Positions 4,592 through 54,859 of a stretch of 64,000 nt of DNA are shown here, one piece after another. The translations under genes were made by a program, and so were the position numbers. The stretch is taken from contig JBDRLQ010000007.1 of the NCBI GenBank assembly GCA_043812915.1, forward strand, positions 3,502 to 67,501, read 5' to 3'. This DNA comes from Candidatus Micrarchaeota archaeon (GTDB lineage Archaea > Micrarchaeota > Micrarchaeia > Anstonellales > Bilamarchaeaceae). The notes under the pieces are model-generated. The model searched no databases. It was not told the DNA's origin and was given only the letters and a program-made list of their open reading frames with translations. How positions within the stretch are numbered: position 1 is the first letter of the stretch; each line of letters begins with the position of its first letter.

Positions 4592-5392
4592 CTAGCCGGC
4601 CATCTTTCTGAGCAGGTAACTGGTAAGGAAAGCGGCTGCAAGAAGGAGGATTATCGTTGCCCCGGACGGAAGGTCGAAAACATATGAGAGCCACAGCCCC
4701 CCCAAGGTCAGGATGGCGCAGGCAATCACTGAAAAGGCCATCATGCGCCCCAGGCTATTTGTGTGCTGTTTCGCTATGGCAGCTGGCAGCGTGAGCAGGG
4801 CTATTACCAGTATTATGCCAACCACCTTTATCATCACAACAACGCTGAGCGCGACCAGGCACAGCAGGAGGAGGTAAAGCCGCCTGGTCGGAACGCCCGA
4901 AACCTCCGCGAATTCCTCGTCGAAGGACAGCGCTTTCAGCTCCTTGTAAAGGAAAAACGTGAATATTATGATGACCAGGTCCAGAATGCCCATAACTGCA
5001 AGCTCAAGCACGGGCACTGTCAGGATGTTGCCGAACAGGTAGCTGAAAAGGTCCGGCGCGTAGCCCTCGCTAAGGTGTATGAAAAGTATCCCAAGGGCCA
5101 TTCCGACGGCCCAGAATATCCCTATGGAAGTGTCTTCGCTGATTTTGGTTTCCTTTGATACGATTCCCATGCCCAGTGCGGACAGGACGCTCCATGGAAC
5201 GGCGGTAAGAATCGGGTCGGCGTTTATCAGGTATCCAAGCCCGATGCCCCCGAAAGCGGTGTGGGCAATCCCGCCGCTTATCGCGACTATCCTCTTGACC
5301 ACAACGTAGGTGCCGACTATCCCGCAGGCTATGCTCACAAGGAAGGCCGCGGCAAACGCGTTTCTCATGAATTCATACTGCAGGATGTCCAT
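4592..5392 (-). CDS. znuB: metal ABC transporter permease (ABC-3 / ZnuB-MntB-TroC type)
   Basis: [34 protein letters not shown]..., multi-TM. ATG 5392 has GGAGG 10 nt upstream and sits 2 nt after the ATPase stop. Confidence 0.85.
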
Positions 5393-5393
5393 C

Positions 5394-6146
5394 TTAGTCA
5401 TGCCTCCCAAGGACCCTGTGCGGCATGCCGTGCGCAATCAGCTCAATCGGGCACTGGTAGGTTTTCTCGATGAACTTCACGCCTTCCTTTGTTTTGCCGT
5501 GGTAGTAGAGCTTTACGTTGAGGCAGGCGATTTTCTCTATGTAAAATGACGCGGCTGTTATGTCATGCGTGATAATCACAATCGCCATGTCCTGTTTCAG
5601 TTTGTTCAGCAGCTCATAGAAGTTTTTCTGGGCCTCGGGGTCGATGCTCGATAGCGGCTCGTCGAGGAGGAGCAGCTCCGGTTTTTTTACCAGCGCCCTT
5701 GCGACAAGGACCCTTTGCAGCTGCCCTCCGGAAAGCTGGCTTATCTGCCTGTTGGATTGCGGCAGCATGCCCACCTTGTCCAGCGCATCCATGGCATCTT
5801 CCCGGTCCTCTTTGGTAAACCAGCTTCCAAAGCCCCTTTTTCCAAGCCGTCCCATCAGCGTAACCTCAAGCACGGTTATCGGAAAGTCCCTGTTGAAAGT
5901 TGCGACCTGCGGGACATATCCGACTTTGTCCCTTGCCTCCTTGGGGGATTTTCCGAAAACCTTTACCACTCCTTTTGCGGGCTTGAGCAGGCCCAGTATT
6001 ATCCTGAACAGGGTTGTCTTTCCCCCTCCGTTGGGGCCTATGATGCCGACCAGGTCCCTTTTTTCTATCGACAGATTGATATCGTGAAGCGCGGGCTGCT
6101 CATCATAGGAAAAACAGACCCCGCTCATCTCTATGGCATCGGACAT
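5394..6146 (-). CDS. znuC: metal ABC transporter ATP-binding protein
   Basis: Walker [10 protein letters not shown], signature LSGGQLQR, Walker B LLLLDEP. Start [10 protein letters not shown] chosen downstream of the SBP gene stop. Confidence 0.9.
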
Positions 6147-6183: not shown

Positions 6184-7104
6184 CTATTCCATGGAACTGG
6201 CAAAGGCGTTTGCAATCTGCTGCATGTTGCGCAGGTAATCCTTGTCAAGCGGGTCTATGAGGACAACGCTTCCTCCGATTTGTCCGGCAACCGTCCGCGC
6301 GCTATCAGCGCTGAACTGCGGCGATGCGAAAATGACCTTTATGCCGTGTTCATCCGCCTCGTCTATTATGCGCTGCAGGTTCTGCGCGGTAGGCTCCTTT
6401 CCAGCTTCTTCCATCGCGACCTGCTCCAGGCCGTATTCATGCGCGAAATATCCCCAAGCAGGGTGGAAGACTATGAATTCCCCGTCCGTCTTGTTTTCAA
6501 GCGTAGCCAGTATGGAGGAATCCAGTGCATCGAGCCTGGCCATGTAATAATCGGCGTTCGCCTTGTAGTAGGCAGCGTTTTCAGGGTCTTCCGCAACAAG
6601 GGCTTCATATATGTTCTGAACCATGACAATGGCGTTCTTCGGCGAGTTCCATATATGGGGATCAAGGCCGGTGTGGGCATGCTCCTGCTCTTCCGCCCCC
6701 TGCGCGTCGCCTTCATGCTCATCATGCCCGTTTTCCATCTCGATAAGGGTGATGCCTCTTGAACAATCGATGATTTTCATGGAGGGATTGACGCCCTCTA
6801 TATCCGCCATCCAGGCATTTTCAAATTCCACGCCGGAGCCGACCTTGAAATACAATCCGGCAGCAGCAACTTCCGTAAGCTGGGACGGGGTAGGCTCATA
6901 CGTGTGCGGGCTCGCCCCGGAAGGAATCATCACTATTACATCCACTTTCTCCCCGCCGACGTTTTCAACGAATTCCGCCTGCGGCATGATAGTTACCACC
7001 ACCTTCATCTTTTCCTGCTGCTCCGAAGGTTCTTCATGGCCCGTGCAGCCAGAGAGCATGGAGAGGAGCAGCATTACTGAAAGGAGAGCTATTTTTTCCA
7101 TCAT
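6184..7104 (-). CDS. znuA: metal ABC transporter substrate-binding lipoprotein (TroA/ZnuA-like) with His/Asp/Glu-rich loop
   Basis: Signal peptide plus lipobox LSMLSGC. Metal-ligand contexts SPHTYEP, DPHIW, FHPAWGYF. Acidic/His loop ENGHDEHEGDAQGAEEQEHAH, as seen in ZnuA-type proteins. Confidence 0.85.
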   Translation of the reverse strand: MMEKIALLSVMLLLSMLSGCTGHEEPSEQQEKMKVVVTIMPQAEFVENVGGEKVDVIVMIPSGASPHTYEPTPSQLTEVAAAGLYFKVGSGVEFENAWMADIEGVNPSMKIIDCSRGITLIEMENGHDEHEGDAQGAEEQEHAHTGLDPHIWNSPKNAIVMVQNIYEALVAEDPENAAYYKANADYYMARLDALDSSILATLENKTDGEFIVFHPAWGYFAHEYGLEQVAMEEAGKEPTAQNLQRIIDEADEHGIKVIFASPQFSADSARTVAGQIGGSVVLIDPLDKDYLRNMQQIANAFASSME

Positions 7105-7122
7105 TGTTCACCTGAACCTTTT

Positions 7123-7152
7123 TTGGAAATATAGATTAATAAATTTTTCCAA
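7123..7152. promoter_or_regulatory. Perfect inverted repeat TTGGAAA-N16-TTTCCAA in the znuA / nikR-like divergent intergenic region (candidate operator)
   Basis: Half-sites at 7123-7129 and 7146-7152. The AT-rich spacer (TATAGATTAATAAATT) looks like the TATA region for the znuA-like gene, whose ATG ends at 7104. Confidence 0.5.
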
Positions 7153-7339
7153 CATAATTATTAACTATGGGGAAAGGCAGCGGGAAAATTAATAAGAAAA
7201 GCGCGTTCGCGGGAAATGAATCCCTTGCGATGGGCGCATTATTCGCGCTTGGGCTCTTTGCATGCCCCCGCCCAATGTGCTTAGGAACGGCCGCGGCGCT
7301 CCTGCTAAACGGGATGAGGCAGAAGGCGATGGTGATTTT

Positions 7340-7720
7340 ATGGAAATAATCTCAATCTCAATAGATAAGGGGACTTTGAATGACCTGAATAACACCCAGG
7401 AAAAGCTCGGATTCAAAAGCCGCTCGAAACTGCTAAGGGCTACAATAAGTTCGCTCCTGAACGAATATTCCGTTCTGGACGGGCTATCCGGCCACTGCGA
7501 CGTTGTTTTCACGGTAACCTTCGAGCAGCATAGTGGCGGGGGATTCGGCAGGATTATGAACGAATTCGAGGGGATAATACGGACCGAGATACACCAGCAC
7601 CATGCCAAGACGTGCCTGCGGGTGATTATAGTCTGCGGGGACGCCCGGAAGGTGAGGGATTTTTTCGTCGCACTGAAAAATGAGAAAGGGGCCAAATCGG
7701 TGGCCTACTCGGTTTTATGA
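7340..7720 (+). CDS. nikR: NikR-family (ribbon-helix-helix + ACT-like metal-sensing domain) transcriptional regulator
   Basis: N-terminal RHH MEIISISIDKGTLNDLNNTQEKLGFKSRSKLLRATI. C-terminal FEQH...IHQHHAKTCLRVIIVCGD resembles the NikR His/Cys metal site. SD GGTGAT before ATG 7340. Confidence 0.75.
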   Translation: MEIISISIDKGTLNDLNNTQEKLGFKSRSKLLRATISSLLNEYSVLDGLSGHCDVVFTVTFEQHSGGGFGRIMNEFEGIIRTEIHQHHAKTCLRVIIVCGDARKVRDFFVALKNEKGAKSVAYSVL

Positions 7721-7775: not shown

Positions 7776-8661
7776 ATGCCTGACTGGACAGTGACGGCCC
7801 TGATTGCGTTTTTCCTATTCGGCCTGCTGAATGTGATGCAGAAGATATACCGGAAAAAATCAAGCACTCGATGAGCCTGGTCATTCTTGTCGCATTTGGG
7901 GATTCTCTCCTGATGCTGCTTGCCTTGGTCAACGGCTTTTCGTGTCCTGATTTGCCCACTCTGCTTATCGGTATCTTCGCAGGTGTCCTCGGAGCCCTCG
8001 CGTTCATCCCATATATGGAGGCTATCCACAGGGAAGAAGTCTCGAGGGTGATTCTCCTGCTCAACCTCGTTCCTCTGTTCGTACTTGTAATCTCATTTTC
8101 TTTCTTGATGAAGTCCTTACTACTGCCCAATACGGGGCATTCGCATGCATCCTTGCGGGAGCGGTCCTAATCTCTATCCGGAGCTTCAAGGGGTTCCTGA
8201 AAATCAACAGGATGGTTGTGCTGCTAATTGGCATGTCCTCCTTCCTCTATGCCCTTCAGCTAATACTCTCAAAGTACGTGCTGACGAATATGGATTTCCT
8301 TGATGGTACTATCCTGATCGGGGGGAGCAACATGTTTGTTGTGATATCCCTTCTTCTTAGCCGCAGAACTCGGGGAAATGCTGTCGCTGACTTCCGCAGC
8401 ACAGGAGCGCTTGCCATCATAGTCTTCATAGCCGTATCCATTGCAGCCGTGCTTATCTACTTTTATGCCCTGATGCAGGGAAGCTCTTCATTGATTAGCG
8501 TGCTCTCCGGATTCCAGATGGTCGCCGTCTTCGCAATCGCCACAATCCTTTCATTCCGCGCCCCGAATCTCCTCAGGGAGGAGACCCATCCGAAGCACCT
8601 GCTCCTCAAAGCCTTCGCGATAGCGCTTATGATTGCGGGCCTTGCGCTCATTTACCTCTGA
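7776..8661 (+). pseudogene. EamA/DMT-family transporter interrupted by two 1-nt frameshifts (or sequencing errors) in homopolymer tracts
   Basis: Three consecutive frames (7776.., 7871.., 8101..8661) join into about 296 aa of EamA-like sequence. The shifts sit at the A6 run 7853-7858 and the T4 run 8095-8098. Restoring one nt gives ...VLVISFFFLDEVLTTAQYGAFACILAGAVLI. Confidence 0.7.
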
Positions 8662-48942: not shown

Positions 48943-50184
48943 CTATGCGGCCTGCATAATGCCCTCTGGCGCCTGGCCCGGGGCTCCCCGGTATATCAGG
49001 GAGGCATTCAACAAAATCCTGCCATTCCAGCGGGGGTTCCTGAGCGTGCTTCCGATTTCCCTGAGGCCTGCCGCGATCTCATACGCTTCCCGGTGCATCC
49101 CATCTCGGTAGAGCTCAAGCGCGGTCTTGAGTATCCATTCCTCCTGGGCGAGCACTATGCCATTGAACCTGTCGTCCTGGGCGCACATCTGCCTTGCATT
49201 ATCAAGGGTCTCAAGAACCGCCACGAACCCGTTATCCAGCATCCTCTTCCGGTCGCCGGTCATCTCAAACAGGCTGGCAGCTTCCCTGTGCTTGCCCGAC
49301 ATCGCAGCCGCCTCGGCTATCTCATGCACTTCGACTGCCATGTTGAAACCAAGCAGATGCTCTCCGGCCTCAAGGAATCTACCTCCCCTCAGCATTTCCG
49401 AAGCGCTTTCCATAGCCTCCGCCTTCCTGCATTTCGCCTCTGCCCCGCAGAGCCTGATTAGCCCATAGAGCTCTGCCGCAAGGCCAAACCTCTCGGCCCC
49501 CTCGCAGATTTCAGCCAGCTGGAACACGTGATGCTTCTTCCTCTGGAATCTCATCTCCCTTGCATATTCTAGTATTTCCTCATCCTTGAAGTCTGCCAGC
49601 AGCTTTGGGTTGGGCTGCTTGTACATCTCATTGTATTTCACAACCCCCCGAAGGCCAGAGTTCCACCTGACGACGTTCACCGCCATTTCGTGGTTCCCTT
49701 CGGATTGGAGCCTGTCCACCAGGCCGAAGAATGCATCCTCGTTCCTGGTTAACATATAGACGTTTGCAGCATCCCTGGAATTCCCACGCTGCTCGAAATC
49801 GAATCCGACCATGGCCGCTTCCTGCACCCAGCCCATCTCAATGAATATCGCGACTGCCTGCAAATCCAGCATGTCGGCTTCTAAGGGGTCCATATTCGTG
49901 CCATCCTCGCGAATAAGGGCGGCCTGCTTCCTAAGTTCGAGCGCCTCCACCTTCATCTTCCTGTAATCCTCTGCGCGCTCCCCGCCTCCATTGCGCGTTG
50001 GCAAAGACCAGAGGCCAGAATCCAGATTCACCCTCTGCTTGCTAACCTGCGGCCTGCTTATCCTGTCTGGCTCCGGCTTCCTCCTGAAGACTGAGGCTAC
50101 TGCGCTAATCATGCCCTTGATTGTGATGGGTGTTGTGAGTATCTCCTTTGCTTTCTGCATCCTGGTTCTCTGGATTGTCTGCAT
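48943..50184 (-). CDS. alpha-helical repeat (TPR-like?) protein, hypothetical
   Basis: Long ORF rich in paired helices (A/E/L/R-rich). No catalytic motif recognised. Confidence 0.55.
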   Translation of the reverse strand: MQTIQRTRMQKAKEILTTPITIKGMISAVASVFRRKPEPDRISRPQVSKQRVNLDSGLWSLPTRNGGGERAEDYRKMKVEALELRKQAALIREDGTNMDPLEADMLDLQAVAIFIEMGWVQEAAMVGFDFEQRGNSRDAANVYMLTRNEDAFFGLVDRLQSEGNHEMAVNVVRWNSGLRGVVKYNEMYKQPNPKLLADFKDEEILEYAREMRFQRKKHHVFQLAEICEGAERFGLAAELYGLIRLCGAEAKCRKAEAMESASEMLRGGRFLEAGEHLLGFNMAVEVHEIAEAAAMSGKHREAASLFEMTGDRKRMLDNGFVAVLETLDNARQMCAQDDRFNGIVLAQEEWILKTALELYRDGMHREAYEIAAGLREIGSTLRNPRWNGRILLNASLIYRGAPGQAPEGIMQAA

Positions 50185-50399
50185 GTGGTCACCTGTAACT
50201 TTTCCGGGTGATTACAATAATTGCATTGTTTAAATATTTTTCGCCCGGCCCGGAACCCCCAACCGGTTCATCTGAAAGCAAAAAACCCTACGCTTTTTGC
50301 CGAAGTGGGGTTAAACTAATGTCATGTTTTTAAACCCTATCCATAAACTTATCCTCAAACTTTTTCCAATGAAAAAACCATGCAGAAAGAGTGGTATCA

Positions 50400-52313
50400 A
50401 TGGCGTCAGTAACTGAAAAAATACTGAAGGAACATATTGTGGAAGGGGAATGGAAGACGGGAGAGGAAATAGGAATCAAAATAGACCAGACCCTCACCCA
50501 GGATGCGACAGGAACGATGGCGTACCTCGAATTCGAGGCGATGGGCAAGCCCAAGGTGGATACCGAGCTGTCAGTTTCCTATGTCGACCACAATATGCTG
50601 CAGACCGACTTCAAGAACGCGGATGACCATGATTATCTGAAAACGGTCGCGGCCAAATACGGCGTATTATATTCAAGGGCGGGAAACGGGATCTGCCACC
50701 AGGTGCACCTTGAGAGGTTCGCCAGGCCCGGAAAGACCCTGCTCGGCTCCGACTCGCACACCCCGACGGCAGGGGGCATGGGCGAAATCGCGATAGGTGC
50801 GGGGGGCCTTGATGTCGCTGTCGCAATGGGCGGGGGGAGATTCTATCTTAATACCCCCAAAGTAGTCGGGGTGAAACTCAGCGGAAAGCTCAGGCCATGG
50901 GTTTCCGCCAAGGATGTGATACTTGAGATGCTCAGGAGGCTTGATGTCAAGGGCGGAGTGGGGAAGGTCTTCGAATACTTCGGCCCGGGCGCCGAGACCC
51001 TGAGTGTCCCTGAGCGGGCGACCATCACCAACATGGGTGCGGAGCTGGGCGCCACAACCTCAATTTTCCCATCGGATGCTATCACAAAGAGATACCTGGA
51101 GAGCCAGGATAGGGGCGGCCAGTTCGTTGAGATCAAAGGAGATTCCGAATCTGATTATGACGAGATTATCGAACTTGATTTGGGCGCTGTGGAGCCCCTC
51201 GTCTCGAAGCCCTCCAGCCCTGGCAATGTGGGCACGGTAAAGGAGATGGAAGGCACTAAGGTGAACCAGGTTATTGTGGGCTCATGCACGAACTCTTCAT
51301 TCCGCGACCTGATGATTGTCGCCAAAGTCCTCAAGGGAAAGAAGGTGCACAAGGACGTCTCCTTCTGTGTCCTGCCAGGCTCAAGGCAGGTATACTCGAT
51401 GATTGCGAGGAACGGCGCTCTTGCTGACCTTATCGCCTCCGGGGCAAGAATTCTGGAATCGGCATGCGGGCCGTGCATCGGCATGGGGCAGGCCCCAAGG
51501 AGCGGGGGCGTAACTGTCCGCACGTTCAATCGGAACTTCAAGGGGCGCTGCGGCACGAAGGACGCTGATGCGTACCTCTGCAGCCCTGAGACTGCGGCCG
51601 CAATAGCGATAAACGGGGAATTCACCTCGCCTGACAAGCTCGGGCAGTTCCCGGTTATAGATGATGAGATGCCCGTGATTGACGATTCAATGATTGTGAA
51701 GCCGCCTGAAGATGGCTCGTCGGTTGAAATCAAGAGGGGCCCGAACATCAAGCCGCTCCCGGAGATGAAGGCTCTGGAGGATGAGATTTCCAGGGAAGTG
51801 CTGATAAAGGTCGGGGACAACATAACAACAGACCACATCATGCCCGCTGGCGCGCAGATACTTCCTCTAAGAAGCAACATCCCGGCGATCTCCGAGTTCG
51901 TGTTCTCACAGGTGGACAAGGAGTTCCCGGCGAGGGCGAAGGAGAAGAACGGCGGCTTCATAATCGGAGGGGAGAACTATGGCCAGGGTTCCAGCCGTGA
52001 GCACGCGGCAATCGCCCCACTATATCTTGGGGTAAAGGCGGTCATCGCAAAGAACTGGGCAAGAATACACAAGAGCAACCTTGTGAATTTCGGCATCGTC
52101 CCGCTCGATTTCGAGAATCCAGCCGACTACGACAGGATAGAGCAGGGGGATGTCCTTGAGATAAAGGGCCTTCGGGACGGGGTGAAGAATGGCCGAGTCA
52201 CGATAAAGGATGTCACAAAGGGCTTCGAGTTCAAGGCAAAGACCGAACTGTCCGAAAGGGCCGCTAACGTGCTGCTCGAAGGCGGAACGATTAATTTCAC
52301 AAAGAAAAAGTAA
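50400..52313 (+). CDS. acn: aconitate hydratase, ~640-aa 'Aquifex-type' aconitase
   Basis: [36 protein letters not shown] (cluster ligands), C-terminal swivel domain [14 protein letters not shown]. Confidence 0.9.
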
Positions 52314-52332
52314 TGATTTTGCAGGTGAAACT

Positions 52333-53559
52333 ATGGAAGAGAAAGGAGAGAAAATCAGGAAGGAAAATGGAAAGCTCGTTGTCCCGGACACCCCCATCAT
52401 CCCATACATAGAGGGGGATGGGGTGGGTATTGACATTACTCCTGTCATGATTAAGGTAGTCGATGCCGCGGTTGAGAAGGCATATGGCGGAGATAGGAAA
52501 ATCGCATGGAAGAAGATTTACGCCGGTCAGGAGGCAAAGGACAAGTTCGACAACTACCTGCCCGATGAAACCATCCAGGCAATCAAGGACCATTTAGTTG
52601 CAATCAAGGGCCCGCTCACAACTCCGGTGGGTGGCGGAATCAGGAGCCTGAATGTTACAATGCGCCAGGTGATGGACCTATATTCTTGCGTGAGGCCGGT
52701 CAAATGGTATGAAGGCACTCCGGCTCCGGTCAAGGAGCCGAACAAGCTCGATGTTGTAGTCTTCAGGGAAAACACTGAGGATGTATACGCCGGAATCGAA
52801 TGGAAGGAAGGAACAGAGGAATGCAAGAAGGTCATCAGCTTCCTGAACAACGAGATGGGGAAGGATGTGCGCCGGGATTCCGGAATCGGTGTGAAGCCTA
52901 TTTCAATTACCGGCACCAAGAGGCTGGTCGCCTCCGCAATCCAGTATGCCATTGACCACAACAGGCGCTCGGTCACCCTCGTCCACAAGGGCAATATCAT
53001 GAAGTTCACCGAAGGTGCTTTCAGGGAATGGGGATATCAGGTGGCCCAGGAGCAGTTCGGGGAGAGGACCGTGACGGAGAAGGAAGTTACTGAGAGCCAT
53101 GGCGGCAAGGTGCCGGATGGTAAAATCCTAATCAATGACAGGATTGCCGATGCCATGTTCCAGCAGGTGCTGCTCAGGCCCGATGAATATGATGTGATTG
53201 CGACCCCCAACCTGAACGGCGACTACATATCCGATGCGTGCGCTGCGCAGGTCGGAGGGCTTGGGATGGCGCCTGGCGCGAACATCAACTATACTACTGG
53301 TGTCGCCCTATTCGAGGCGACTCACGGAACCGCGCCAAAGCACGCCGGCCAGGACAAGGTCAACCCGGGCTCGCTCATCCTATCAGCAACCATGATGCTC
53401 CAGTACCTTGGATGGGAAGAGGCTGCGAAGCTGGTTGAGAAGGGGCTCGCCAAAGCAATCAGCTCAAAGAATGTCACCTATGACCTTGAGAGGCAGATTG
53501 AGGGGGCGAGGCTCCTCAAGTGCTCAGAATTCGGGGATGCGATAATCGGCAACATGTGA
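52333..53559 (+). CDS. icd: isocitrate dehydrogenase (NADP-type, prokaryotic homodimeric family)
   Basis: [72 protein letters not shown]. Confidence 0.9.
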
Positions 53560-53578
53560 AGACAAGGGGAGAAGAGCT

Positions 53579-54859
53579 ATGGCAAGGAGAAAATTACGCG
53601 AATACGATGCCAAGAGGCTGCTTGCTGAGAACATGAAGGAGGCAAGCGATGGAGAGCTGCAGTATGTTTCCACATGCGTGCAGGTCGCCCAGGACACCGA
53701 CATGGACAAGCTCGGGAAGGAGAACGCTTGGCTCAAAAGCATGAAGCTGGTTGTGAAACCCGACATGCTCTTTGGCCGCCGGGGAAAGAACAACCTCATC
53801 CTCCTCAACGCCTCGTGGGAGGAAGCCAAAAAATTCATCAGGGAGAAGATGAATTCAGAGGTTGAAATCCGCGGCGTTAAGGGCGCCCTTACGCACTTCC
53901 TTGTGGAGCCTTTCGTTCCGCACAATGAAGAGTATTATTTCTCCATCCTCTCCAAGAGGGATGAGGATGCCATAAGCTTCTCTGTCGCAGGCGGAATGGA
54001 TGTCGAGGAGAACTGGGAGAAGATGGTGCATGTAACAGTGCCAACTGGCGGGGAGCCCGACGCCAAGGAGATTGAGAAGGGCCTTTCGAACCTGTCCGAG
54101 GAAAAGAGGGCCAAGACAGCGATATTCATCCAGTCATGCTACAGGGTATTCCGGGACCTGGACTTCACCCTTATGGAGTTCAATCCTTTCACCTATGATG
54201 AGGATGGAAGCCCGTTTCCCCTTGACATGCGGGGGGAGCTGGATGATACTGCCGAGTTCAAGGACTGGAAGAAATGGGGCAAGATAGATTTCCCAAGGCC
54301 CTTTGGAAGGAAACTCTATCCTGAGGAGCAGTTCGTCTCTGAGCTGGACAGCAAGAGCGGCTCTTCCCTGAAGCTTACCCTGCTCAATCCGGAGGGAAGG
54401 ATATGGACAATGGTTGCCGGCGGGGGCGCCTCAGTCATCTATGCCGACACCATTGTTGATTTAGGGATGGGGCACGAACTGGCCAACTATGGCGAGTACA
54501 GCGGAGATCCGAACGCCGAGGAGACTTATCTTTATGCCAAGACGCTCCTGGACCTTGCGACAAGGAACGCGGACGGCAAGCCCCGCGCATTGATAATAGG
54601 AGGGGGAATCGCGAACTTCACTGATGTGGCCAAGACATTTACAGGAATCATCCGGGCGCTTAGGGAATATAAGGACAAGATGAAGGCCGCCGGAATCAGG
54701 ATATACGTGCGGAGGGGCGGCCCGAACTATCAGACCGGGCTTAAGCTAATGAGGGGGCTTGGAAACGAGCTTGGAATCCCGATAGAGGTGCATGGCCCCG
54801 AGGCGCAGATGACCAACATCGTGCCGATGGCTATCGATTATGTCAAGGGAGGTGCTTGA
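53579..54859 (+). CDS. aclB: ATP-citrate lyase, small (beta, ATP-grasp) subunit
   Basis: MARRKLREYDAKRLL, VVKPDMLFGRRGK, FLVEPFVPHNEEYY, LDMRGELDDTAEFK, RIWTMVAGGGASVIYADT, IGGGIANFTDVA. Collinear with plant ACLA / the human ACLY N-terminus as I remember them. Confidence 0.88.
   Translation: MARRKLREYDAKRLLAENMKEASDGELQYVSTCVQVAQDTDMDKLGKENAWLKSMKLVVKPDMLFGRRGKNNLILLNASWEEAKKFIREKMNSEVEIRGVKGALTHFLVEPFVPHNEEYYFSILSKRDEDAISFSVAGGMDVEENWEKMVHVTVPTGGEPDAKEIEKGLSNLSEEKRAKTAIFIQSCYRVFRDLDFTLMEFNPFTYDEDGSPFPLDMRGELDDTAEFKDWKKWGKIDFPRPFGRKLYPEEQFVSELDSKSGSSLKLTLLNPEGRIWTMVAGGGASVIYADTIVDLGMGHELANYGEYSGDPNAEETYLYAKTLLDLATRNADGKPRALIIGGGIANFTDVAKTFTGIIRALREYKDKMKAAGIRIYVRRGGPNYQTGLKLMRGLGNELGIPIEVHGPEAQMTNIVPMAIDYVKGGA

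Follow-up and report, generated by a model that had tools for sequence, protein, structure and literature searches.

What does a regulator of the NikR family, the textbook nickel-only sensor whose selectivity arises from coordination geometry, control when its gene faces an importer that looks built for zinc? The question is raised by a 64,000-nucleotide (nt) stretch of DNA (hereafter, the window; contig JBDRLQ010000007.1 of assembly GCA_043812915.1, positions 3,502 to 67,501) from a Candidatus Micrarchaeota archaeon, a member of the DPANN archaea known from a metagenome-assembled genome (1.3-Mb assembly, 89.6% complete), in which a nikR-like gene and a znuABC-like operon are transcribed away from one another. 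Zinc sensing in archaea is largely unexplained. A preliminary description, made from the window alone, had proposed that the regulator binds a dyad, TTGGAAA-N16-TTTCCAA, in the space between the two transcription units, and that a nickel-type sensor had here been repurposed, or broadened, to control a cluster A-I metal importer. Comparative analyses led us to a different site: the most likely candidate operator is TTAWTAA-N15-TTAWTAA (7136–7164 in the window), and the reading that we favour, and consider moderately probable, is that the regulator is a NikR-family autorepressor of zinc uptake with Zn(II) as its effector.

Conservation among orthologs, rarity within the genome and constant linkage to the regulator gene all point to this element. 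The window's promoter region was compared with those of four orthologous loci that share the divergent znuA layout and encode regulators 73–81% identical to the window's (L018, L020, L021 and L022; here and below, labels such as L002 denote loci and labels such as G001 genomes). TTAATAA-N15-TTATTAAC was invariant in all five promoters, with diverged flanks, and in the four orthologs, which keep a small open reading frame (ORF) upstream of the regulator gene, it runs directly into the start codon of that ORF. In the window, the element (TTAATAA at 7136–7142 and TTATTAA at 7158–7164) is 29 bp long, and the centres of its half-sites are separated by 22 bp; its consensus across loci is R-TTAWTAA-AT(A)TT...(A)A(A)R-TTAWTAA-C, or, in short form, R-TTAWTAA-N15-TTAWTAA-Y. 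The pattern TTAWTAA-N15-TTAWTAA occurs exactly twice in the 1.3-Mb genome, once at each of its two NikR-like loci (one facing znuABC, the other a transporter of the ZIP family), against a chance expectation of approximately 0.003 pairs at this fixed spacing given the 86 half-sites present genome-wide. No TTAWTAA pair was found in this genome at spacers of 8–14 or 16–23 nt, nor any further site at 0–1 mismatch of the strict form, and the five matches at two mismatches had no evident metal context; the regulon in this genome thus looks limited to two loci. The second copy belongs to a paralogous regulator gene (56% identical; contig C16, 38738–39928, corresponding to L002 1498–2700) divergent from the ZIP gene, and a 30-bp element in its 96-bp intergenic region matches that of the window at 25 of 30 positions. 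Downstream of the paralogous regulator lies a rubrerythrin-like gene.

The features of the window's locus are listed below (window coordinates, strand and description).

4592–5401, minus strand: znuB, an ABC-3 permease (Pfam ABC-3, 8e-81)
5394–6146, minus strand: znuC, an ATP-binding cassette (ABC) ATPase (Pfam ABC_tran, 1e-30)
6184–7104, minus strand: znuA, a cluster A-I substrate-binding lipoprotein of the zinc type (Pfam ZnuA, 1e-75)
7123–7152, unstranded: TTGGAAA-N16-TTTCCAA, the dyad of the preliminary description, present and not conserved
7136–7164, unstranded: TTAATAA-N15-TTATTAA, the conserved candidate operator, recognized by its invariance in orthologs and genome-wide rarity
7167–7349, plus strand: small membrane ORF of 60 residues, with position and protein sequence kept in orthologs
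7189–7195, unstranded: third half-site, TTAATAA (TTAWTAA at +53 or +54 in 31 of 41 loci)
7340–7720, plus strand: NikR-family regulator of 126 residues, with an N-terminal ribbon-helix-helix and a C-terminal NikR_C domain

Two gene boundaries differ from those first drawn. The whole of 7105–7339 had been taken as spacer; the 60-residue ORF fills 7167–7349, which leaves a true intergenic spacer of 62 bp (7105–7166, 23% G+C). The regulator's start, initially placed at 7262, is replaced by the ATG at 7340: all 45 aligned family members are approximately 126 residues long, and all but two of them open with ME-I-(I/V)-S. For znuC, the start is probably the ATG at 6146, which gives a protein of 250 residues, matching ortholog lengths.

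The dyad first proposed as the operator (TTGGAAATATAGATTAATAAATTTTTCCAA) is present as described, its two 7-nt arms matching perfectly across a spacer of 16 nt (7123–7152, TTGGAAA-TATAGATTAATAAATT-TTTCCAA). Its appeal lies in those perfect 7-bp arms, in the AT-rich core that they flank and in the placement of the left arm, the first base of which is 19 nt away from the start codon of the znuA-like gene (ATG at 7104). A pattern search found this 30-mer to be unique in the window and in the genome, which is uninformative because its 14 specified bases make uniqueness expected. When the 62-bp spacer was shuffled with its dinucleotide counts preserved, 18% of the randomized sequences contained a perfect 7-bp inverted repeat with a spacer of 5–25 nt; for the full 7105–7339 region the figure was 34%, and the real region holds three repeats of this class. 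In none of the four orthologous promoters was the left arm found, its position being taken by unrelated sequence (for example, gtatgctatgataag in L018); the right arm, which falls within the N15 stretch between the conserved half-sites, is retained in part (TTTCTTA, TTCCTTA, TTTCTAT or GTTTTGT); and the dyad is not present at the paralogous ZIP locus. Its half-sites lie 23 bp apart centre to centre, compared with 22 bp both in the conserved dyad and in the Escherichia coli NikR operator (GTATGA-N16-TCATAC), the architecture of which it had been said to share. Absence from orthologous promoters was the result that the preliminary description had itself named as counting against this site, and, together with the shuffle test, it led us to reject the TTGGAAA dyad as an operator; on this comparison its closeness to the real element, whose left arm begins 13 bp to its right, is due to chance, and we regard it as extremely improbable that it serves as the operator or as a lineage-specific extra operator of this regulator. 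What survives of the initial proposal is the arrangement, in which a dyad of NikR-like geometry overlaps the divergent promoters of importer and regulator; the site itself is TTAWTAA-N15-TTAWTAA.

Beyond these loci, a scan for the pattern over 185,579 species genomes yielded 36 full-length named loci, all from Micrarchaeota or Iainarchaeum, and all 36 had a single dyad, placed in every case immediately upstream of the regulator gene or of the small-ORF/regulator operon. Across the dyad, the divergent gene encoded a ZIP transporter at 21 of these loci and belonged to a ZnuABC system at 11; no such transporter adjoined the remaining four (L044, L054, L055 and L060), where none of the Pfam-scanned neighbours was metal-related. 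Altogether, conservation of the dyad spans more than 40 species. We also examined the 40 nearest relatives of the host, a set that may overlap with the 36 named loci, such that the counts are not additive. Fourteen of these relatives carry a regulator homolog (26–51% identical), and in 11 of the 14 the gene adjoins ZnuA or ZIP (10 divergent and 1 downstream in the same operon; 3 are unlinked). The exact dyads listed among the relatives (G004, G005, G016 and G027) all lie beside a NikR-like gene, as do the single matches at one mismatch or fewer in G003, G008, G011, G022, G024 and G031; in AT-rich relatives, matches at this tolerance are as numerous as those of a reversed control pattern, and only exact matches and single-match genomes are informative. 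Two sets of matches at one mismatch or fewer were set aside, one inside an ORF (G001) and a pair upstream of nrdR/nrdD that is probably due to chance (G038). In G014, the NikR-like gene is without the TTAWTAA dyad, and a different near-perfect palindrome, ATTATGAATTTATATTCATAAT (L007 1655–1700, G014:C62), lies approximately 60 nt upstream of the gene start.

The protein that accompanies the dyad is a genuine member of the NikR family, as first suggested from its sequence. It matched Pfam NikR_C (PF08753; E = 5.4e-8, 33.4 bits against a cut-off of 22), and phmmer aligned it over nearly its full length with the NikR proteins of Pyrococcus horikoshii (2BJ1, 2e-5, the best match), Helicobacter pylori and E. 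coli. An AlphaFold (AF2) model built from a 45-sequence alignment (predicted local distance difference test score of 92; predicted template modelling (TM) score of 0.80) has an N-terminal segment followed by helices at residues 10–23 and 28–47, and the top 50 Foldseek matches in the PDB were all NikR (best 2WVD, TM score of 0.82; H. pylori NikR–DNA complex 6MRJ, TM score of 0.80). The regulator aligns full-length with NikR chains, including that of the DNA complex 6MRJ; the matches also include isolated NikR C-terminal domain chains (target-normalized TM scores of 0.77–0.87), and Pfam RHH_1 is listed for many homologs. On the basis of this model, the regulator has both NikR domains (ribbon-helix-helix and NikR_C) and the full fold. 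Pfam detected no Fur domain in it, and any likeness to the bacterial zinc regulator Zur is functional only. On the predicted DNA-reading β-strand, M1, I3, S5 and S7 are invariant across the 45 family members, and the invariance of I3, S5 and S7 fits that of the TTAWTAA half-site. H52, D54 and H88 are near-invariant and have no E. coli counterpart.

Both importer families linked to the regulator suggest zinc as the cargo. The window's ZnuA is closest to the Zn-specific Synechocystis ZnuA (1PQ4, 3e-59, the nearest match of known structure) and then to Bacillus subtilis YcdH (2e-42), ahead of Mn and Fe proteins; its motifs PHTYEP, DPHIW and FHPAW align with the ligand motifs of 1PQ4, the third ligand being His, and its loop, IEMENGHDEHEGDAQGAEEQEHAHTGL, contains 4 His and 9 Asp/Glu, in agreement with the earlier view of the importer as zinc-type rather than Nik-type. 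Among the 19 ZnuA homologs linked to the regulator, 17 have His-His-His in the ligand columns and 11 have His/acid-rich loops. The second linked family is ZIP, and the pairing of a NikR-like gene with one or other importer is conserved across dozens of Micrarchaeota, which fits the suggestion that a NikR-family sensor has been repurposed to control a cluster A-I system and extends it to a second type of transporter. The attachment of a NikR-family sensor to zinc-type importers thus stands, with far more behind it than the window alone could offer. The presence of two regulators sharing one half-site in a single cell also raises the question of cross-talk between them or of a response graded between ZIP and the high-affinity ABC importer.

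The small ORF that separates the dyad from the regulator gene also belongs to the conserved arrangement. Homologs (48–61 residues, hydrophobic) lie upstream of the regulator at 20 of 40 loci and share the motif KGNxSLAIG...(C/H)PCPxC...NG(I/L)REK (CPRPMC in the window's copy), and orthologs keep the protein sequence while their DNA diverges. The family has no Pfam match; a homolog search gave no match with the L018 version and, with a second version, matches to Micrarchaeota proteins annotated as hypothetical and to no others. The stop codon of the ORF overlaps the start of the regulator gene (ATGGAAATAA), with GGTGA just upstream, which suggests that the two are translationally coupled, and the ORF may encode a membrane-bound, metal-binding partner of the regulator.

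Of 41 loci, 31 have a third TTAWTAA half-site on the regulator side, at an offset of 53–54 nt from the first base of the dyad, both where the small ORF is present and where it is missing. In the window it lies at +53, within codons 8–10 of the small ORF, and at the paralogous ZIP locus at +54 (L002 1892–1898). The dyad itself is tightly packed against the genes it separates: the small-ORF ATG begins 2 nt after it in the window and 2–4 nt after the right arm across several loci, and a run of AAA resembling the transcription factor B recognition element (BRE) precedes the left arm in most loci. The left arm (TTAATAAA) lies approximately 27–28 nt upstream of the small-ORF ATG, the classical spacing for leaderless archaeal mRNAs, and would thus be the TATA box of the rightward promoter. 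On the other side, znuA has an AGGTGA Shine–Dalgarno sequence 4 nt before its ATG; its transcript start would therefore lie upstream of approximately 7116, and its TATA box would therefore also fall within the dyad. This assignment of half-sites to TATA boxes is our inference from spacing.

An argument against a dedicated operator is that TTAWTAA half-sites are TATA-like and might owe some of their conservation to a role in the promoters. In the extreme case, the dyad would amount to two TATA boxes set back to back, one for each divergent promoter, and no dedicated repressor would bind it; the leaderless geometry of the left arm, centred approximately 28 nt before the small-ORF ATG, and the BRE-like run before it in most loci would both fit. 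Generic TATA boxes, however, are degenerate, whereas both arms here are 7/7 exact at a fixed N15 spacing in more than 40 species; the pair is found nowhere else in a genome with many divergent gene pairs; and the dyad travels with the NikR-like gene whatever transporter family lies opposite. We therefore consider a pure promoter explanation very improbable, and retain the dyad as the candidate operator of the NikR-like regulator.

As for Zn(II) as its effector, several observations weigh against it. Three residues of the regulator align with E. coli nickel ligands: H85 (with H87) and C92 (with C95), which do not vary across the family, and H87 (with H89), the conservation of which is at least 90%. 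The equivalent of the E. coli ligand H76 (position 74) is His in 27 of the 45 members and Asn (N74) in the window protein, which carries H64; the two placements are almost mutually exclusive, with H74 alone in 25 members, a His at 63–65 alone in 15, both in 2 and neither in 3, such that the fourth ligand may have moved, in a single clade-level event, out of the end of helix 3 into the preceding loop in the window's subclade. Most members thus keep a fourth His and a nickel site is possible, a tetrahedral zinc site and a square-planar nickel site not being separable from sequence alone. The genome also encodes a group-4 (Mbh/Ech-like) [NiFe]-hydrogenase-type cluster (C16, approximately 49500–53600; L023 3520–7559), with NuoH-, NuoB- and antiporter-like subunits, a HycI protease and a large subunit that keeps the Ni-binding motifs RTCGICSQCH (RxCGxCxxxH) and DPCISC (DPCxxC); the large subunit and HycI led us to reject the notion that this genome has no nickel biology. 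No NicO or CbiM gene, and no recognized nickel importer, was found in it. Further, in G014, which is without ZnuA and ZIP, the only dyad at one mismatch or fewer lies 34 nt upstream of a gene of the CbiM family (Ni/Co-type), between feoB and cbiM in an operon (L024, G014:C27, 279–3660) that comprises, in this order, a small-ORF homolog, a DtxR–FeoA fusion, FeoB and the CbiM-family gene, the product of which starts with MHIHLPDG and has a long His/Glu/Asp-rich loop. Together with the homology and fold, the three or four His3Cys ligands kept across the family, and the description of NikR proteins as sensors of nickel only in a 2024 review (PMC11672702), these points would suit a true nickel-responsive NikR that represses via the TTAWTAA dyad, with the Znu-type ABC importer and/or ZIP doubling as the nickel route for the [NiFe]-hydrogenase. 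We judge this unlikely. The ZnuA pocket is an unmodified zinc type (three His plus loop) with its best match to a Zn-specific ZnuA; both dyads in the genome lie at znuABC and ZIP, and none at genes for nickel uptake or nickel enzymes, the usual NikR targets (nikABCDE, nikMNQO, NiCoT, hydrogenase and urease); the hydrogenase-type cluster, approximately 12 kb away from the paralog, is likewise without one. HypA scored above its Pfam cut-off in none of the 14 regulator-bearing relatives, nor in the host genome, and did so only in three relatives, all without the regulator; and the window protein has no His equivalent to E. coli H76, with a His-to-Cys spacing one residue shorter. We also know of no cluster A-I or prokaryotic ZIP system that is a dedicated nickel importer.

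The other option would be an effector such as Mn, Fe or Co, or a broad response to several divalent metals, perhaps with differences between subclades. Both the cluster A-I and the ZIP families include Mn, Fe and Co transporters, the position of the fourth ligand varies by subclade (H74 versus H64), and the ZnuA-like proteins of L061 and L062 have Glu at the third ligand (His-His-Glu, the Mn/Fe type) and no His-rich loop, from which the effector in that subclade may differ. Against this stand the three-His zinc type of 17 of the 19 linked binding proteins and the presence in the host genome of one separate gene of the DtxR family, the usual archaeal Fe/Mn sensor, which can account for Fe/Mn sensing; as a general explanation, we find it quite improbable. 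No Fur/Zur (PF01475) match was found in the host genome (89.6% complete), with the profile matching in all 14 control genomes and exceeding its cut-off in 12.

Taking Zn(II) as the effector, we infer the following course of regulation. The metal-loaded regulator would grip the two arms of TTAATAA-N15-TTATTAA, approximately two helical turns apart, with its two DNA-binding domains, probably assisted by the third TTAATAA. The dyad is centred in the 62-bp gap between the leftward znuABC operon and the rightward small-ORF/regulator operon and would overlap the TATA/BRE/start-site region of both, such that a single DNA-bound tetramer would span core elements of the two promoters and exclude TATA-binding protein, transcription factor B and RNA polymerase; covering core promoter elements is the usual mode of archaeal repressors. 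Expression of the zinc importer would then be shut off along with that of the regulator's own operon, and the paralog would act likewise at the ZIP promoter on the other contig. The effector would most likely be Zn(II), and the family a Micrarchaeota zinc-uptake repressor in the role that Zur plays in bacteria. The most far-reaching form of this account, in which a Zn(II)-sensing, NikR-fold protein is the master zinc-uptake repressor of Micrarchaeota and the first non-nickel member of its family, clamping a three-part TTAWTAA operator on the TATA boxes with the CPCPxC mini-protein as part of the same circuit, has in our estimation about an even chance of being correct.

Two neighbouring short ORFs lie downstream of the regulator on the plus strand (7871–8170 and 8212–8661); the first matches part of the EamA profile only and the second has no Pfam match, which fits a split EamA transporter gene.

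Among known systems, the closest in arrangement is E. coli NikR with its nikABCDE operator, GTATGA-N16-TCATAC. The two proteins have the same two-domain fold (Foldseek 2HZA and 1Q5V), and the two systems share an inverted-repeat operator of 28–29 bp, half-sites 22 bp apart centre to centre and an operator that overlaps the promoter of a metal importer adjoining the regulator gene. They differ in the half-site (TTAWTAA here) and in the residues predicted to read it (I3, S5 and S7 here; R3, T5 and T7 for GTATGA in E. coli), in the target (a zinc-type cluster A-I ABC or ZIP transporter here; the Opp-type Nik system in E. coli), and in the Asn at the H76 position, the additional H52, D54 and H88, the third half-site and the archaeal promoter context. 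Known NikR signals more generally are inverted repeats of 27–28 bp (GTATGAT-N13/14-ATCATAC and GTGTTAC-N13/14-GTAACAC; PMC545781). H. pylori NikR provides the best DNA-bound structural match (6MRJ) and P. horikoshii NikR the best sequence match (2BJ1), and the H. pylori operators, which are AT-rich pseudo-palindromes (TRTTA-N15-TAWTA; PMC5385501), resemble the present site in that TAATA and TATTA within its half-sites fit a TRWYA pentamer; the pentamers are 17 nt apart here and 15 nt apart there, and the H. pylori and P. horikoshii proteins are nickel sensors of nickel genes with only approximately 20–25% identity to the regulator.

A link between NikR homologs and zinc importers has been proposed before, which limits the novelty of our own proposal: a NikR homolog (MTH603/MTBMA_c09830) lies beside ZnuABC in Methanothermobacter, and the idea of zinc uptake was raised for methanogens in 2011 (Kaster et al.). 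The two cases share an archaeal NikR homolog adjoining a ZnuABC-type importer; the earlier one was a one-sentence hypothesis without operator or comparative data, whereas here there is a defined dyad and linkage to ZIP, in a DPANN lineage. No paper that tests zinc sensing by a NikR, or that deals with regulators of Micrarchaeota, came up in our literature search. The archaeal genomes sequenced by 2009 were reported to be without Fur/Zur, with a DtxR-like regulator predicted for Methanosarcina znuABC (Haas et al. 2009; PMC2770081). The functional parallel is Zur, of the Fur family, for which the same role is proposed here, that of a metal-loaded repressor acting on promoters of znuABC and other zinc importers, with an unrelated fold. 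What the Micrarchaeota locus would add to these systems is a case with the NikR fold and NikR-like operator geometry that departs from them in half-site, in targets and, probably, in metal. If so, metal specificity would have been re-tuned on one scaffold, which is linked to two unrelated families of zinc importer. In practice, TTAWTAA-N15-TTAWTAA can serve as a marker of metal regulons when DPANN genomes are annotated.

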